This document shows positions 1,460 to 58,244 of a stretch of 64,000 nucleotides of DNA, in pieces. The notes below the pieces were generated by a model. The model was given only the letters and a program-made list of their open reading frames with translations, had not been told where the DNA came from and did no database searches. Positions within the stretch are counted from its first letter, which is position 1. Each line of letters begins with the position of its first letter. The stretch is from positions 1,054-65,053 of the forward strand of contig JAGVLX010000002.1 of the NCBI GenBank assembly GCA_020054065.1. Direction: 5' to 3'. Source of the DNA: Parachlamydiales bacterium. Its GTDB lineage: Bacteria; Chlamydiota; Chlamydiia; Chlamydiales; JAEYWL01. The translations under genes were made by a program, and so were the position numbers.

Positions 1460-1828
1460 TTATTTCTTCTTATTGGCTACGGTTTTGCGTTTACCTTTAC
1501 GTGTACGCGAATTGGTGCGTGTTCTTTGTCCACGAACCGGCAATCCGAGACGATGACGCATGCCGCGATAAGAATGGATGCTGACTAAACGCTTGATGTT
1601 GTTTTGAACCTGGCGACGCAAGTCCCCTTCCACGACATAGTCCGTTTGGATGACGCCTTGGATTCTGGCGATGTCATCCGGCGTGAGTTTATGTGCGCGC
1701 ATATCGGGGTCGAGTCCGAGTTTTGCGATGATTTCATTCGACACGTGGCGCCCGATACCAAAGATGTATGTCAGGGCAACTTCTAGTCGTTTATTATCCG
1801 GTATGTCGATACCGACAACTCTAGGCAT
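1460..1828 (-). CDS. rpsM: 30S ribosomal protein S13
   Basis: [35 protein letters not shown]. Confidence 0.95.
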
Positions 1829-8626: not shown

Positions 8627-8965
8627 CTATTCTCCTTGACCTACAACAACGGTGAAGTGGCTGGTTCTTTTAATGATCGCGTGGGAGCCGCCTTTGTTTT
8701 TGGGCTTGCTCCGTTTCATGCGCGGGCCTTCGTCAACGCGCACTTCAACCACTTTCAGGTTATCACGGCGCAGTTCGAGTTGTGTTTCCGCGTTAGCGAC
8801 GGCGCTGTCGAGGGTTTTCTTCAGCAAACGGCCAGCTTTAAGCTGGCTGAATTCGAGTTGCACAGAGGCCTGTGCGACTGGAAGTCCGCGGATGAGCCCA
8901 GCAGCAAGGCGTGCTTTCCTTGGGCTTATTCTGACATATTTTGTTTTCGCTGTTGCATTAGCCAT
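8627..8965 (-). CDS. rplV: 50S ribosomal protein L22
   Basis: KYVRISPRKARLAAGLIRG..KRTSHFTVVV. Confidence 0.94.
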   Translation of the reverse strand: MANATAKTKYVRISPRKARLAAGLIRGLPVAQASVQLEFSQLKAGRLLKKTLDSAVANAETQLELRRDNLKVVEVRVDEGPRMKRSKPKNKGGSHAIIKRTSHFTVVVGQGE

Positions 8966-8979
8966 GATTGATTACCTTG

Positions 8980-9270
8980 TTACGAGGCTGCAGGGGTTGC
9001 AGCTGCTGCAGTTTTCTTTGGGTGTCCTTTAAAGATACGGGTAGGCGAAAACTCGCCGAGCCTATGCCCGACCATATTTTCGGATACGAACACCGTAATA
9101 AACTTACGTCCGTTATGAACGTCAAATGTATGTCCGATCATTTCGGGAATGATCATCGAACGGCGCGACCATGTTTTGATCGGCTTTTTGCTGCCTTCTT
9201 TATTCTGTTTCCCGACTTTTGCAAGAAGGTGGTGGTCAACAAACGGGCCTTTTTTTAATGATCTTGCCAT
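8980..9270 (-). CDS. rpsS: 30S ribosomal protein S19
   Basis: [35 protein letters not shown]. Confidence 0.95.
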
Positions 9271-22099: not shown

Positions 22100-23068
22100 A
22101 TGATGGCATTAAAAGTTGTAGCGGTGACAAACGATTCCCAAGGATCGGAACCGCGCCCAGGTTCTTTACGAACAAACCGTAAAAATAGCTTAGAAGCGCG
22201 TATGGAACGGATGTGGCTGACAGATCCGCAGCAATTCAATCCAGACCGGAATGCTTGTGAGAGGGAACGGATCCGCCGTTCATGGGATTTAATTCAGTCA
22301 CTCAAAGCGTGGAAGGGTAAGCAAGCGGTCGACCTAGGGTGTGGATGGGGTGTGTTAAGCTATAAACTCAAAGATGCCGGGGTGGATATATTAGCAGTAG
22401 ACATTGCCAATAATGCGCTCAAACGGTTAAGCGGCCTGCACACCCAGCAGCACGCGCTTCCGGTCACCAAACTTCCGGATGACACATTTGACTTAGTGAT
22501 CTGCACCGATGTGATTGCCTACCTGCATCGTGACGATTTCCGCTTAGCCGTTGCTGAGATGTGCCGCATGTTAAAACCGGATGGGTGGGTGATCTGTTCA
22601 ACTCCTGTCGACATCAATTCAGAAGACGCTCTCGAACGCTTCCAAGGGCTCTTTGCGACCGAATTCCGGATTGAGTTCGAACGGCTAAGCCACTTCGCGT
22701 GGTGGATACGTTTATTCCAATGGTTGGATGCCCCGAAAACATTTTATCAAGGATGGAACAATCCAGAAGAGCGTCAAGAGGGCTTAAAAAATCGGCACGG
22801 ATTTCACTATTGGTGGTACAAGCTAAATAGTTCTTTTGCTTTAGGATGGTTCTGGGGTGGCATTCAATTCATCACCCAACCCCTCGTCAAAGCCCTTAAA
22901 CAATCGAGCGGTTTGCTGATTTTCATGGAAAAATTGTGCGCCAACATCAGCGACCGCAACGGCATCAGCCATGTGATTGTCGCCGGACCGCGAAAGCCAC
23001 TGTTTGAAGGGGTAGAGAAAGTTTCCGATGACCAAAGACCTTTTAGAAAAGAAGTGAAGTGGGAATGA
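22100..23068 (+). CDS. class I SAM-dependent methyltransferase
   Basis: Motif I VDLGCGWGVLSYKL, followed by ILAVDI..DLVICTDVIAYL..LKPDGWVI. It starts 5 nt after the AsnB-like stop. Confidence 0.8.
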   Translation: MMALKVVAVTNDSQGSEPRPGSLRTNRKNSLEARMERMWLTDPQQFNPDRNACERERIRRSWDLIQSLKAWKGKQAVDLGCGWGVLSYKLKDAGVDILAVDIANNALKRLSGLHTQQHALPVTKLPDDTFDLVICTDVIAYLHRDDFRLAVAEMCRMLKPDGWVICSTPVDINSEDALERFQGLFATEFRIEFERLSHFAWWIRLFQWLDAPKTFYQGWNNPEERQEGLKNRHGFHYWWYKLNSSFALGWFWGGIQFITQPLVKALKQSSGLLIFMEKLCANISDRNGISHVIVAGPRKPLFEGVEKVSDDQRPFRKEVKWE

Positions 23069-23160
23069 CAGGACCAGGACAAACAGGACATCCACGACAT
23101 ACAGGACAAGCACGACATTTTTGTCCTGTGTGTCGTGGATGTCCTGTTTGTCCTGGTCTG
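23069..23160. repeat. Family B palindromic element, copy B1
   Basis: caggaccaggacaaacaggacatccacgacatacaggaca (23069-23107) pairs with tgtcctgtgtgtcgtggatgtcctgtttgtcctggtctg (23122-23160), 39 bp with 2 mismatches. It fills the gap between two convergent stop codons exactly. Confidence 0.92.
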
Positions 23161-24531
23161 TTATCTTAAGACGCGCGGATCGGTGCGCTTGATGATGAGG
23201 CTGACGTTTTTCTGATTGAACCCTTTATACCCTTCACGGCGCTGCAGGTTTTCCATATGGCTGCCAACCGCCCCGTATTTTAAAAAGAGATCGGCTTGTT
23301 CATCGGTGATGAATCCTTGATCGCGTAGCTGGTACACTTTTTTCTCGGGAACCGGCCACACTTCGCCAACGGTGAAGGCTTGACGAAGGTAAGGAAAGTT
23401 GCTGAATGGCTCCATCATCCCCACGCCATGGTGATTCAAATCCGTCTTCAACTCATCAAACATGAACTGGGCTTCCAAGTGATGCATGCCAGATTTTAAA
23501 ATGGAATCCCCATGCAACGCACACCACAACCCGATTGTGCCAAGCTGCTCGAGTTCGGGAAGGGTGTGATGGGCAAAATCGTAATCGATCTCTTCATCAG
23601 CAAGATCGACATCAAGGAAGGTGACCAACCGGCAATTGGTGTTTTCCATGACCTGTGCACCCCATCCTGCTTCCTTCCCCGCATAAAACCGCTCGCGGCA
23701 ATGAAAACCTAGAATTTCAAACAGGCGGACTAGCTGGCTAAAGCGATGACGCGACGAACGAAACGTATGATGGTCATGATTCGCCCATCCCATTCCCAAA
23801 CCATCCTGCCGGTTTTTTTGAATCTGTCCAGCAGTATTCCTAAACTGCCAATAACGGCGCTCACACTCTAATACGATCCAAGCAGCAAGATCCTGCCCCA
23901 CCATGTTGACTAACTCTTCCGCAAGCGCCAAGGTCTTGCTCATCGCTAAATTCTCATTCTCCAGATCACGCTGGCGCGTCATCCATTTTTCCGATGCGGC
24001 AATGTATTTTTCTAGATAGGTGGGCTCATGATAGGTGGGTTCTAAGATGCGCGTTCCACGCCGCTCCACGACCCAAAGGGAGATTCCTTCCTCATTCGAT
24101 ACGATAGCCCGCCGATAGCCTCCGAATGGACCGCCTTCCATCTCAGCTTGCATGCCGCGCACCATCAAAAAGTCGGCGATGCTCTCCACACAGATTGCAA
24201 TTCCTAATACACTCGGCGCATGATCCCGTACCACCACCATCGGCAATTGCGCGCCAGGGTGATGAAACACCCGGTAGGAGGGCGCCGCATGCAATGGCTC
24301 GAAACCGCTATCTTCTAAATCGCGTTCCGCTTGAGGAGAATGTCCGACAATGACGTGATCCAACCAATCGAACAGCCGCGTACTCGTATGCTTTAACAAA
24401 TCATGCTGCAATTGATGAATGAAATGATTGTGCATGCAACATTGTTCAAGAACGTCCAAAACGAACGATTCCGCCTTGGGATGGCACTGCCAATCATACT
24501 GCACAAGTGTTTTAGACATCATACTCCTCAT
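23161..24531 (-). CDS. hypothetical His-rich enzyme-like protein (possible VOC/DUF1338-like metalloenzyme)
   Basis: 456-aa ORF. GWANHDHHTFRS and GSHMENLQRREGYKGFN loosely resemble the His/His/Glu metal motifs of DUF1338/HPPD-type VOC folds. The assignment is weak. Confidence 0.35.
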   Translation of the reverse strand: MRSMMSKTLVQYDWQCHPKAESFVLDVLEQCCMHNHFIHQLQHDLLKHTSTRLFDWLDHVIVGHSPQAERDLEDSGFEPLHAAPSYRVFHHPGAQLPMVVVRDHAPSVLGIAICVESIADFLMVRGMQAEMEGGPFGGYRRAIVSNEEGISLWVVERRGTRILEPTYHEPTYLEKYIAASEKWMTRQRDLENENLAMSKTLALAEELVNMVGQDLAAWIVLECERRYWQFRNTAGQIQKNRQDGLGMGWANHDHHTFRSSRHRFSQLVRLFEILGFHCRERFYAGKEAGWGAQVMENTNCRLVTFLDVDLADEEIDYDFAHHTLPELEQLGTIGLWCALHGDSILKSGMHHLEAQFMFDELKTDLNHHGVGMMEPFSNFPYLRQAFTVGEVWPVPEKKVYQLRDQGFITDEQADLFLKYGAVGSHMENLQRREGYKGFNQKNVSLIIKRTDPRVLR

Positions 24532-31142: not shown

Positions 31143-31190
31143 AACAGGACCAGGACATGCAGACAAGTAATTTTTTGTCCTGGTCCTGTT
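31143..31190. repeat. Family B palindromic element, short copy B2 (terminator-like hairpin)
   Basis: aacaggaccaggaca (31143-57) pairs with tgtcctggtcctgtt (31176-90). The loop ends in tttttt. It lies 5 nt after the hisS stop. Confidence 0.85.
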
Positions 31191-33867: not shown

Positions 33868-33954
33868 GTCTCTGTGATTAAATCAAATTAACCACAGAGG
33901 CACAGAGGTCACAGAGTTATTTTTTTATCTCTGTGATCTCTGTGCCTCTGTGGT
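33868..33954. repeat. Family A palindromic element, short copy A3
   Basis: accacagaggcacagaggtcacagag (33891-33916) pairs with ctctgtgatctctgtgcctctgtggt (33929-33954), with a T-rich loop. An extra arm fragment gtctctgtgat lies at 33868-78. Confidence 0.9.
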
Positions 33955-33975
33955 AATTTTCTTTAGAATTCAACT

Positions 33976-34422: not shown

Positions 34423-34495
34423 AAAAAGGACCTAAATGACTTTATGTCGTTTAGGTCCTTTTTGTCCCTTTGGTCGTTTTGTCGTTCGTCCTTTT
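34423..34495. repeat. Family B-related element B3: perfect 18-bp bidirectional terminator hairpin plus solo arm
   Basis: aaaaaggacctaaatgac (34423-40), 5-nt loop, gtcgtttaggtccttttt (34446-63), followed by the arm gtccctttggtcgttttgtcgttcgtcctttt. It lies between the convergent trmL and trxA stops. Confidence 0.88.
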
Positions 34496-44490: not shown

Positions 44491-45132
44491 ATGGCTTGGG
44501 GAATCATGATCTACACATCAGTTAGGGATACTTATTGCGGAAAGCTATTTTGCAAACACATCGATTCCTATCAAAACGGGCCGAAGGATAATGCGATCAA
44601 GCGTTCGGGTAACAATGTGGCGATCCGTTTTCGTTTAGGATTGACGGCTATACCCGCTCTTTTGGCGATGATCACTGATTTTGCATTAGGATTGATTATC
44701 GGCGTCGGCGATTTATTAATCGGCCGGTTTGTCCCGCTGGCGTACCATGCCAAAAAGTTTACGGTGTTTGGAATTTCTAATGGGTATACGGCATGCGTGT
44801 GTTTAAAAGGCGCGCTCGCAGGACCCTCGTTTGTTGCGCATATTCCGCAAGATGCGTTGAATTGTGAGCAGGGATATTTGAACAACAAGAAATTCAAATT
44901 TTCCAGATTATTTAACGATCAAGATCAAAATATTCAAACAATTCGCGGGCTTGTGGAGGCGTTTAATCAATTATGTACGCTTTCAAAAAGACGCCTGATT
45001 GGGTCGATTCGTTATGAAGTGGATCACCCGGAATTTTCCATCACCCATTTTGAATTTATAGACCGCATTGAAAAGACGTATCGGGAGTTGTTTAGGTTTG
45101 CGACCCAGTTGCGCGAAGGGTATGTAGTGTAA
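44491..45132 (+). CDS. hypothetical membrane protein with bilobed hydrophobic domain (Inc-like candidate)
   Basis: LGLTAIPALLAMITDFALGLIIGVGDLLIG. Start set at ATG 44491 (AAGGAGG SD), not the track's TTG at 44434, which coincides with the -35 box. Confidence 0.6.
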   Translation: MAWGIMIYTSVRDTYCGKLFCKHIDSYQNGPKDNAIKRSGNNVAIRFRLGLTAIPALLAMITDFALGLIIGVGDLLIGRFVPLAYHAKKFTVFGISNGYTACVCLKGALAGPSFVAHIPQDALNCEQGYLNNKKFKFSRLFNDQDQNIQTIRGLVEAFNQLCTLSKRRLIGSIRYEVDHPEFSITHFEFIDRIEKTYRELFRFATQLREGYVV

Positions 45133-45226
45133 AAACGACAAAACGACCAAAACGACTAAAAGGACCAAAAGGACAATTTTTGGTCCTTTACGTCCTTTTG
45201 GTCGTTTTGTCGTTTGTCCTTTTTTG
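45131..45226. repeat. Family B palindromic element, copy B5
   Basis: aaaaacgacaaaacgaccaaaacgactaaaaggaccaaaaggaca / ggtcctttacgtccttttggtcgttttgtcgtttgtccttttt. The right arm encodes the last 12 codons of uvrC. Confidence 0.88.
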
Positions 45227-48775: not shown

Positions 48776-48804
48776 TTCAACGTTAAATTTTAAAGTTTGT
48801 TAGA

Positions 48805-48836
48805 AAAAGGCACTCAGAAATGGGTGCCTTTTTTAT
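48805..48836 (+). terminator. Rho-independent terminator
   Basis: aaaaaggcactcagaaatgggtgcctttttt: GC stem plus T-run, 30 nt after the stop at 48775. Confidence 0.7.
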
Positions 48837-48860: not shown

Positions 48861-49034
48861 ACCACAGAGGCACAGAGAACACAGAGAGATAAAAAAATAA
48901 CAAGGGTGACGACTATAACCAGGATTAGAGAAAGAATGAAATCGATGTCGGTAAGGAGAATCGATTCATGCAAATTCTAATTTTATCCCTTGTATCTCGG
49001 TATTTTATCTCTGTGATCTCTGTGCCTCTGTGGT
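48861..49034. repeat. Family A palindromic element, copy A5 (longest form)
   Basis: accacagaggcacagagaacacagagagataaaa (48861-95) pairs with ttttatctctgtgatctctgtgcctctgtggt (49003-34). The 107-nt core has further nested palindromes (acaaggg/cccttgt; gaatcgat). The core start aaaaataacaa.g..ataaccagga is shared with A1. Confidence 0.9.
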
Positions 49035-51428: not shown

Positions 51429-51477
51429 CGTGTTTGTCGTGCAGGTCCTGTTTGTCCTAGTCGTTTTTGTCGTTTTT
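51429..51477. repeat. Family B solo arm, copy B6
   Basis: cgtgtttgtcgtgcaggtcctgtttgtcctagtcgtttttgtcgttttt mixes both B sub-motifs (gtcctgtttgtcct and gtcgtttttgtcgtt). No partner arm. Confidence 0.75.
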
Positions 51478-54500: not shown

Positions 54501-54537
54501 TGATGAAATTTTGGATTTCAGCAAGATCCAACAATAG
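51520..54537 (+). CDS. glyQS: glycyl-tRNA synthetase, fused alpha-beta chain
   Basis: N-terminal GlyQ ([37 protein letters not shown]..) is continuous with a GlyS-like beta region, about 1005 aa in total. ATG 51520 is preferred over TTG 51508. Confidence 0.93.
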
Positions 54538-54588
54538 GACAGATTTTGTCGTGTGTGTCGTGGATGTCCTGTTTGTCCTGGTCCTGTT
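54537..54588. repeat. Family B solo arm, copy B7
   Basis: tgtcgtgtgtgtcgtggatgtcctgtttgtcctggtcctgtt is nearly identical to the right arm of B1. It fills the gap between the convergent glyQS and DCC-gene stops. Confidence 0.82.
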
Positions 54589-58173: not shown

Positions 58174-58244
58174 CATCCAGGACCAGGACAATTAAATGCC
58201 TTCGTCGTGCTTGTCCGGTATGTCTTGTTTGTCCTGGTCCTGTT
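58174..58244. repeat. Family B palindromic element, copy B8
   Basis: catccaggaccaggacaa .. tcgtcgtgcttgtccggtatgtcttgtttgtcctggtcctgtt. It lies between the convergent F-box and czcA stops. Confidence 0.85.

Follow-up and report, generated by a model that had tools for sequence, protein, structure and literature searches.

Dispersed palindromes with arms of 9-nt modules, probably serving or tolerated as bidirectional terminators, in a Parachlamydiales bacterium

The 64,000 nucleotides (nt) of contig JAGVLX010000002.1 from a Parachlamydiales bacterium (assembly GCA_020054065.1, positions 1,054 to 65,053), which are called the window here, contain eight copies of a palindromic repeat, family B, whose arms are strings of 9-nt modules. 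The copies, named B1 to B8, descend from one another, and they are probably dispersed hairpins similar to repetitive extragenic palindromic (REP) elements, free of open reading frames (ORFs), which serve or are tolerated as bidirectional terminators or 3'-end structures. They resemble both REP and foldback elements. This reading is drawn from the placement, polarity and anatomy of the copies and from their comparison with loci obtained by genome, metagenome, protein and viral searches, which carry L-numbers below; the window and these scattered loci form the whole sample. The original prediction, made from the letters of the window, had counted eight copies, and all eight were found where it had placed them.

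The placement of the elements is terminator-like, which gives indirect support to the earlier proposal of bidirectional terminators. Among the intergenic gaps of at least 40 nt in the window, hairpin-forming periodic palindromes, five of them from family B and one from a second family (family A, described below), occur in six of seven convergent gaps and in none of seven divergent gaps (Fisher p = 0.005). Six of the eight copies had been described as fitting exactly between two convergent stop codons; six do lie at convergent junctions, but the stop-to-stop fit holds only for B1, B3, B7 and B8, and in B4 and B5 one flanking ORF enters an arm and stops within it. The stop codons that touch the elements read TGA|CAGGACC at the left of B1, TAA|CAGACC at the right of B1, TAA|CAGGACC at B7 and at the right of B8, TAA|AAGGAC at the right of B3, and TAA|AAACGAC at the left of B5. 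B2 keeps the terminus TAACAGGACC with no gene end there, and the TAA is therefore part of the element itself. Repeat units also encode the C-terminal ends of two proteins, 8 residues of TrhO and 12 of UvrC: the ORFs can run into the arms because these hold hardly any stop codons, T being nearly absent from the 5' arm and A from the 3' arm.

The syntenic relative L238, whose glycyl-tRNA synthetase (GlyRS) is 66% identical and whose G+C content is 38%, has ordinary, unique hairpins at the orthologous glyQS and AcrB junctions, and its 20 kb contain no palindrome with arms of at least 18 nt, versus 11 in the 64-kb window. Palindromes of the same construction are found between converging ORFs at L002, L031, L041, L095 and L234, and L242 has one element at the glyQS/dnaG junction.

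The two arms of the elements are of unequal composition. In every periodic palindrome the T fraction is at most 0.14 in the 5' arm and at least 0.36 in the 3' arm, so the element reads as a T-poor arm, a loop and a T-rich arm on either strand. When both strands were counted symmetrically in the window and in the 120 genome-scan loci listed, a purine-rich arm was followed by a T-rich arm in 15 cases, and the opposite order never occurred. This polarity is the one expected of a bidirectional intrinsic terminator, in which an A-rich, T-poor arm comes first and a T-rich arm second. B3 has the textbook form of a terminator, A5-stem-T5, and the inner hairpin of B5 is terminator-like on both strands in a simple terminator scan; the inner hairpins of both carry A and U tracts and have the parts of an intrinsic terminator, a G+C-rich stem, a loop of 3-8 nt and a U-rich tract immediately behind the stem. 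The loops of B1, B2, B4 and B8 measure 11-37 nt, and these copies have no clean U-tract.

Each module consists of a core, [A/C]A[G/C]GAC, followed by about 3 variable bases, and GGAC and CGAC units often alternate along an arm; because of this alternation, Tandem Repeats Finder also reports an 18-nt super-period. The spacing of the cores is mostly 9 nt, with 6 nt at the outer end of alpha copies and 8 or 7 nt in beta copies, alpha (B1, B2, B7 and B8) and beta (B3, B4 and B5) being the two subfamilies that are distinguished by the ends GTCCTGTTTGTCCTGGTCCTGTTA and GGTCGTTTTGTCGTTTGTCCTTTTA, respectively. A period that is strictly a multiple of 3 had been claimed, and it was observed in B1 (6, 9, 9, 9, 9) and in the alpha copies; the 8- and 7-nt steps of B3-B5 show that it does not extend to the whole family. 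Read on the GTC strand from the loop outward, alpha arms follow the order [GTCGTGCTT GTCCTGTAT] GTCGTGGAT GTCCTGTTT GTCCTG GTCCTG TTA and beta arms the order GGTCCTTTTG GTCGTTTTA GTCCTTTTG GTCGTTTT GTCGTTT GTCCTTTT(A), and in each subfamily the outer end is the best conserved part. The alignment of the arms also bears out the second sub-motif that had been assigned to B3-B5 and the mixture of both in B6.

Arms are 79-97% identical within alpha, 84-93% within beta and 65-77% between the subfamilies. The arm of B7 and the right arm of B1 agree in 41 of 43 positions, as the description of the two as nearly identical had implied, and removal of one 9-nt unit from the left arm of B1 gives the right arm of B8. 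Distant arms hold their variant units in a common order and differ by the gain or loss of whole 9-nt units. This common order, with the B8/B1 and B7/B1 matches, therefore indicates descent with gain and loss of units and not independent local expansions, and it upholds the copy mechanism suggested earlier. Chance low-complexity sequence, which the original prediction had named as one way it could fail, does not reproduce the arrays: the degenerate pattern GTCSTK-N3 repeated four times has 6 matches in the window, and its three-unit version 12, versus 0.00 for both in dinucleotide shuffles.

B1 (23069-23160) is a full palindrome of the alpha type, with a purine-rich arm at 23072-23109 and a T-rich arm at 23121-23158. 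Its arms measure 38 nt, are 97% complementary and are separated by 11 nt. The predicted RNA fold has -76.7 kcal/mol, against -25.8 ± 3.2 for shuffled sequences (z = -16), and the element takes up all the space from the stop of a methyltransferase gene (+, 23066-23068) to that of a gene for 456 amino acids (aa) (-, 23161-23163). B2 (31143-31190), a short alpha copy, has two arms of 15 nt (31143-31157 and 31176-31190) that are 100% complementary around an 18-nt loop (z -6.3); it lies between the co-directional hisS and aspS, and its right end is the TAACAGGACC at which no gene ends. B8 (58174-58244), also alpha, is located between a 433-aa gene (+) and an AcrB-like gene (-); its outer 14 nt pair (58178-58191 with 58229-58242, 100% complementary, z -5.5), and its loop contains three extra right-arm units.

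The beta copy B3 (34423-34495), between trmL (+) and a thioredoxin gene (-), is formed by a hairpin (34423-34440 and 34446-34463, z -7.2), with A5 and T5 on its sides, and by a T-rich tail of 4 units (34464-34495). B4 (37931-38005) has a purine-rich array of 5 units (37931-37979) opposite a short T-rich arm, with its outer 20 nt paired (37933-37952 with 37986-38005, z -5.8), and its left arm holds, at 37931-37959, the last 8 codons and the stop of trhO (+). B5 (45131-45226) is a full palindrome whose 38-nt arms (45133-45170 and 45178-45215) are 92% complementary (z -10.2), and its right arm holds, at 45188-45226, the last 12 codons and the stop of uvrC (-). The arms of B3, B4 and B8 are unequal, one having about 2 units and its partner 5-6.

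Folding is strong relative to shuffles in B1, B2, B3, B4, B5 and B8 (z -5.5 to -16). B6 and B7 are unstructured and therefore solo arms, as they had been labelled. B6 (51429-51477, +) is a T-rich arm of mixed alpha and beta units with no stable fold (z -1.0), located in the divergent region upstream of glyQS, and B7 (54537-54588, +) is an alpha T-rich arm, likewise with no stable fold (z -1.0). The neighbours of B7 are the stop of glyQS and a minus-strand gene of 134 aa, which takes its TAA stop from the element terminus TAACAGGACC.

In the favoured explanation, terminator-like hairpins copied to gene ends, both converging transcripts would end in one long hairpin. In the beta type each added module would lengthen the stem by a G+C core, followed by a U-run, and the modules would build a nested series of terminator-like hairpins in both directions. 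Family B elements would replace the unique hairpins that relatives have at equivalent junctions. Long perfect stems are substrates of RNase III, and the stems of at least 38 bp are also predicted to be so. The length of the arms may change by slippage of whole modules, while their complementarity may be maintained by quasi-palindrome template switching, which is a known mutational process in Escherichia coli; arm-to-arm complementarity is high, 97-100% here and in L234, L047, L101 and L242. As traces of a spreading process, target duplications at the copies, REP tags and a transposase among the window proteins scanned were looked for and not found. For unpaired arms, Rho loading on the YC-phased T-rich arm is conceivable.

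Several observations weigh against these hairpins acting as terminators. In the alpha copies no proper U-tract follows the stem, the loops measure 11-37 nt and the simple scan makes no call. B6 and B7 cannot form a hairpin and yet persist, B6 in a divergent region. The stems, of 38-82 bp, go far beyond what termination needs, and some copies from Acidobacteriota (L031) keep their cores while the spacers are non-complementary, which is not what a pure hairpin model predicts. A canonical bidirectional intrinsic terminator (AAAAAGGCACTC...GGGTGCCTTTTTT) is located at 48803-48836, in the convergent gap that holds a composite palindrome of family A; therefore the organism also uses ordinary terminators, and family B is not its only solution. 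Finally, the sample consists of one 64-kb window and scattered loci, so that a genome-wide pattern is not established.

Other functions were considered for the motif. A sponge for CsrA or Hfq was dropped because the GGA motifs are buried in the stem, and the elemental-pause consensus was dropped because the 9-nt period places G and not a pyrimidine at position -1. DnaA boxes, restriction sites and uptake sequences fit poorly and were also dropped.

The copies could instead be miniature inverted-repeat transposable elements (MITEs), whose arms would be terminal inverted repeats (TIRs) accompanied by subterminal repeats that bind a transposase. This enzyme, encoded elsewhere, would move the elements by cut-and-paste, and their placement at 3' ends would only reflect tolerance of insertion there. 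The conservation of the outer ends in each subfamily, the identity of about 80-95% among copies, the decayed and half copies B6 and B7, the nesting of palindromes (14144-14289, 48861-49034, L234 and L242) and the patchy presence among related lineages would suit such elements, and foldback elements and MITEs with subrepeated TIRs share with family B inverted arms built of subrepeats, conserved outer ends, decayed copies and nesting. We nevertheless consider this origin unlikely, as the flanks of B1, B2, B3, B5, B7 and B8 have no target-site duplication, no transposase is present among the window proteins scanned, the element consists of repeat throughout and has no unique internal segment, and neutral insertion alone leaves the strict polarity and the junction bias unexplained. 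Mobilisation as REP or REPIN elements by a RAYT (an IS200/IS605-like Y1 transposase) is highly improbable. Like family B, REP, BIME and REPIN elements are short multicopy extragenic palindromes that prefer 3' ends and convergent gene ends, have no target duplications and have proposed roles in transcription termination and control of mRNA 3' ends, and the alpha copies carry a conserved short tag, TAAC...GTTA, at the foot of the stem. REP elements are defined, however, by a GTAG or CGTC tetranucleotide at one end of an imperfect palindrome of 20-40 nt (PMC3733652), and family B has neither tag, its ends being TAACAGGACC in alpha and TAAAAGGAC / TAAAAACGAC in beta; each arm measures 14-38 nt here and up to 82 nt in relatives, against 20-40 nt for a total REP, the arms are internally periodic strings of tandem 9-nt modules, REPIN doublets do not occur and no RAYT gene was found in the window. 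Chance low-complexity sequence or an assembly artefact has almost no probability: foldback chimeras can give long perfect palindromes in assemblies, but the shuffles gave 0 matches, the flanking genes are syntenic with those of a relative, and an equivalent architecture appears in independent JGI, ENA and NCBI assemblies.

Another explanation, possible but tentative, is that the nonamer arrays are binding sites of an oligomeric nucleic-acid-binding protein, for which the candidate is the four-helix-bundle-suffix protein (TIGR04258 with TIGR02436, PF05635). The elements would then be ORF-less relatives of a cassette similar to an intervening sequence (IVS), with hairpin arms and a gene in or beside the loop, or else conditional terminators under protein control. 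In all five loci picked by the protein alone, which are L244 (Geomonas silvestris), L245 (Verrucomicrobiota), L246 (Pirellulales), L249 and L257 (both Deltaproteobacteria), GGAC/GTCC nonamer arrays occur within about 150 nt of the gene. A complete hairpin of purine arm, loop and T-rich arm stands just upstream of the gene in L244, L245, L249 and L257; in L246 an inverted repeat of 34 nt, 82% complementary, encloses the gene, and in L245 a perfect direct repeat of 19 nt lies on both sides of it. In two loci picked by their arrays, L099 (Hydrogenedentota) and L105 (Verrucomicrobiota), the gene is located between the arrays, and the ORF matches TIGR04258 at 1.8e-21 and 4.8e-21, respectively, and TIGR02436 at 1.1e-06. 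The positions concerned are 1142-2137 in L099, 756-1746 in L105, 2337-3150 in L244, 2516-3250 in L245, 2393-3130 in L246, 1516-1587 in L249 and 1298-1477 in L257; the gene is found in such arrays, which usually have 3-8 units, in at least four phyla. The neighbouring genes in Geomonas have ordinary terminators, and therefore the arrays there belong to the cassette. Protein identity across phyla is about 70%, and many of the genes lie on contigs of only 0.6-3 kb, which flanking repeats would explain. Against a binding role in the host organism, a hidden Markov model search found no four-helix-bundle gene in the window or in the Chlamydiota and Acidobacteriota loci, about 250 kb that represent a small share of those genomes. 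The gene could also just use such hairpins as insertion sites or be carried along with them, other palindromes in these genomes use different units (CACAGAG, CAGTGAGAT and GGGCGAGGT), and the distant homologue in L258 (Prevotella nigrescens NZ_CP082843.1, 40% identity), the single match in a plasmid collection, has no GGAC array. For the host organism the four-helix-bundle link is a lead and not a finding, but the repeat-binding protein that the original prediction had raised gains a concrete candidate from it.

The L258 homologue is followed by a palindrome of TAGGAAY units (2140-2215) at a convergent junction. Gene callers extend some four-helix-bundle ORFs into the arrays and create false N-termini such as 'GGQRTKATKRT'. 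The profile of the four-helix-bundle-suffix family had no significant match among the PDB sequences.

PF05635 is described as resembling Avd, an accessory protein of diversity-generating retroelements (DGRs), and the Avd family (CDD cd16375) includes proteins from intervening sequences of 23S rRNA (PMC10053308). The association of arrays and gene suggests an IVS-like origin. In 23S rRNA intervening sequences with a PF05635 ORF, long complementary arms can enclose a gene, as the inverted GGAC arrays do in L246 and L105; unlike them, the window copies are ORF-less and lie between protein genes, and the link consists of an array type shared in other phyla only. It is a doubtful extension of these observations that GGAC/CGAC nonamer hairpins may be a cross-phylum cis-element recognised by Avd-like four-helix-bundle-suffix proteins, probably ring-forming oligomers. 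Each subunit would read one 9-nt module, as TRAP reads triplet repeats, the array beside the gene would be an autoregulatory or mobility signal, and ORF-less arrays would have multiplied at gene ends in lineages such as these Parachlamydiaceae and the Thermoanaerobaculia.

Intrinsic terminators share with family B the position between converging genes and the A-rich then U-rich polarity; unlike them, family B is a copied family and not a set of unique hairpins, and its stems are 3-8 times longer than needed. Repeat families with the form and place of terminators have precedents in SPRITE of Streptococcus pneumoniae and in the inverted pairs of uptake sequences (DUS/USS) of Neisseria and Haemophilus, which belong to different phyla, have unrelated sequences and have no tandem nonamer arms. 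The cyanobacterial STRR heptamers and the TAACTGA repeats of Beggiatoaceae are, like family B, multicopy intergenic tandem repeats of 7-9 nt, but they form direct arrays that are neither palindromes nor tied to convergent gene ends. A CRISPR array, which has repeats of 24-48 nt and unique spacers of about the same length, was ruled out because the units here are 6-9 nt long, stand head to tail and form two inverted blocks. At the gathering score of Rfam, the window gave only a tRNA and the related loci no match at the arrays; below threshold there were only generic matches to long hairpins (miRNA precursors). In the literature on chlamydial repeats, palindromes with tandem arms and four-helix-bundle or IVS proteins, neither the elements nor the gene association was found described.

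The window, which covers most of a 67-kb JGI metagenome contig (Ga0394682_065142, sample 3300038435) and whose G+C content is 47%, encodes a fused GlyQS glycine-tRNA ligase (NF011499) among housekeeping genes. The best named homologues of this GlyRS are from Protochlamydia, with 60-61% identity, and the closest unnamed ones have 66-73%. The host is therefore an uncultured Parachlamydiaceae-like member of Chlamydiota, as the fused GlyQS and these homologues indicate. A cyanobacterial origin was ruled out on the same grounds and by the 0 HIP1 sites in the window. Close strains of the host were not found through the GlyRS cluster, which is one contig, or through a thioredoxin look-up, which gave no match.

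Among Parachlamydiaceae, L047 has perfect arms of 66 nt, L101 has arms of 82 nt, L102 has an equivalent palindrome architecture and L242 has three palindromes in 23 kb. When metagenomes were scanned with an exact 18-mer, in a collection that seems to lack the source sample, L234 was the one true relative; it comes from another metagenome and holds an alpha copy with perfect arms of 47 nt inside a different array. L239, the closest relative, has a small palindrome of ATGGAC units; the ends of its 6.2-kb contig (1-40 and 6200-6239) are mutually reverse complementary, possibly by an assembly foldback or a repeat. The low-G+C relatives L238 and L240 have no such palindromes. Outside Chlamydiota, palindromes of CAAGGAC-N2 nonamers are found in at least 14 loci of Acidobacteriota (Thermoanaerobaculia and Holophagales), several of them between converging ORFs, and nonamer palindromes are also found in Sumerlaeota, Verrucomicrobiota and Hydrogenedentota. 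Overall, the module type appears in Chlamydiota, Verrucomicrobiota, Planctomycetota, Acidobacteriota, Hydrogenedentota, Sumerlaeota and Desulfobacterota, although the matches listed by the degenerate four-unit GTCSTK-N3 scan of the genome collection cannot measure taxonomic spread. The GGAC core may not be special, since the scan pattern selected GGAC/CGAC cores and so biased the finds towards GGAC, and since other unit types are present in these genomes.

Most of the scan matches listed are from high-G+C genomes, such as Streptomyces, on a single strand and without an inverted partner; those among L002-L121 are assumed, with no inspection one by one, to be false positives of coding period. 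The 9-nt GTCSTK pattern also matches coding repeats of the collagen-like Gly-X-Y type, which were seen directly in the viral contigs L279 and L343, are assumed to account for many of the single-strand matches in high-G+C genomes and are the main source of false positives in motif scans for family B. Among the viral contigs, palindrome-like matches were of this collagen-like type only, and no four-helix-bundle homologues were present.

Family A, the second palindromic family in the window, has arms of 8-9-nt CACAGAG / CGCAGAGA units and the terminus TTAACCAC; its copies are at 14144-14289, 17752-17868, 33885-33960, 40648-40779 and 48861-49034, most of them between co-directional genes. The same terminus occurs with different units (CAGTGAGAT) in L242 (13088-13194 and 22559-22733). 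Palindromes nested in the loops of others are present at 14144-14289 and 48861-49034 of the window, at 7030-7200 of L234 and at 22545-22745 of L242; examples are a palindrome of AACCAAGAT units in family A arms and the alpha copy in GGGCGAGGT arrays of L234. The nesting suggests insertion into hairpin loops or layered growth. L242 also has three matches to the Acido-Lenti-1 RNA motif (RF01687) above the gathering score, at 1482-1528 (-), 1626-1672 (+) and 8941-8987 (-), which resemble REP-like, G+C-rich double hairpins in inverted pairs, and one of them adjoins a solo ATGGAC/ATCGAC array (8808-8920).

In practical terms, these repeats break assemblies and extend ORF calls into arms, as in UvrC, TrhO and the N-termini of the four-helix-bundle proteins, and variation in the number of units could provide strain markers. 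For the biology of the organism, the elements would mean that a self-copying family, with arms made of 9-nt modules and stems of up to 38 bp here and 66-82 bp in relatives, can entirely displace the terminator-like hairpins of gene ends, which raises the questions of how such long perfect palindromes are tolerated, how their symmetry is kept and how they spread. The link of the module to a widespread four-helix-bundle-suffix gene provides a testable hypothesis for an orphan family; if true, the arrays would be a set of protein-controlled terminators or RNA-processing sites, and the PF05635 '23S rRNA IVS protein' family would gain its first function outside DGRs.

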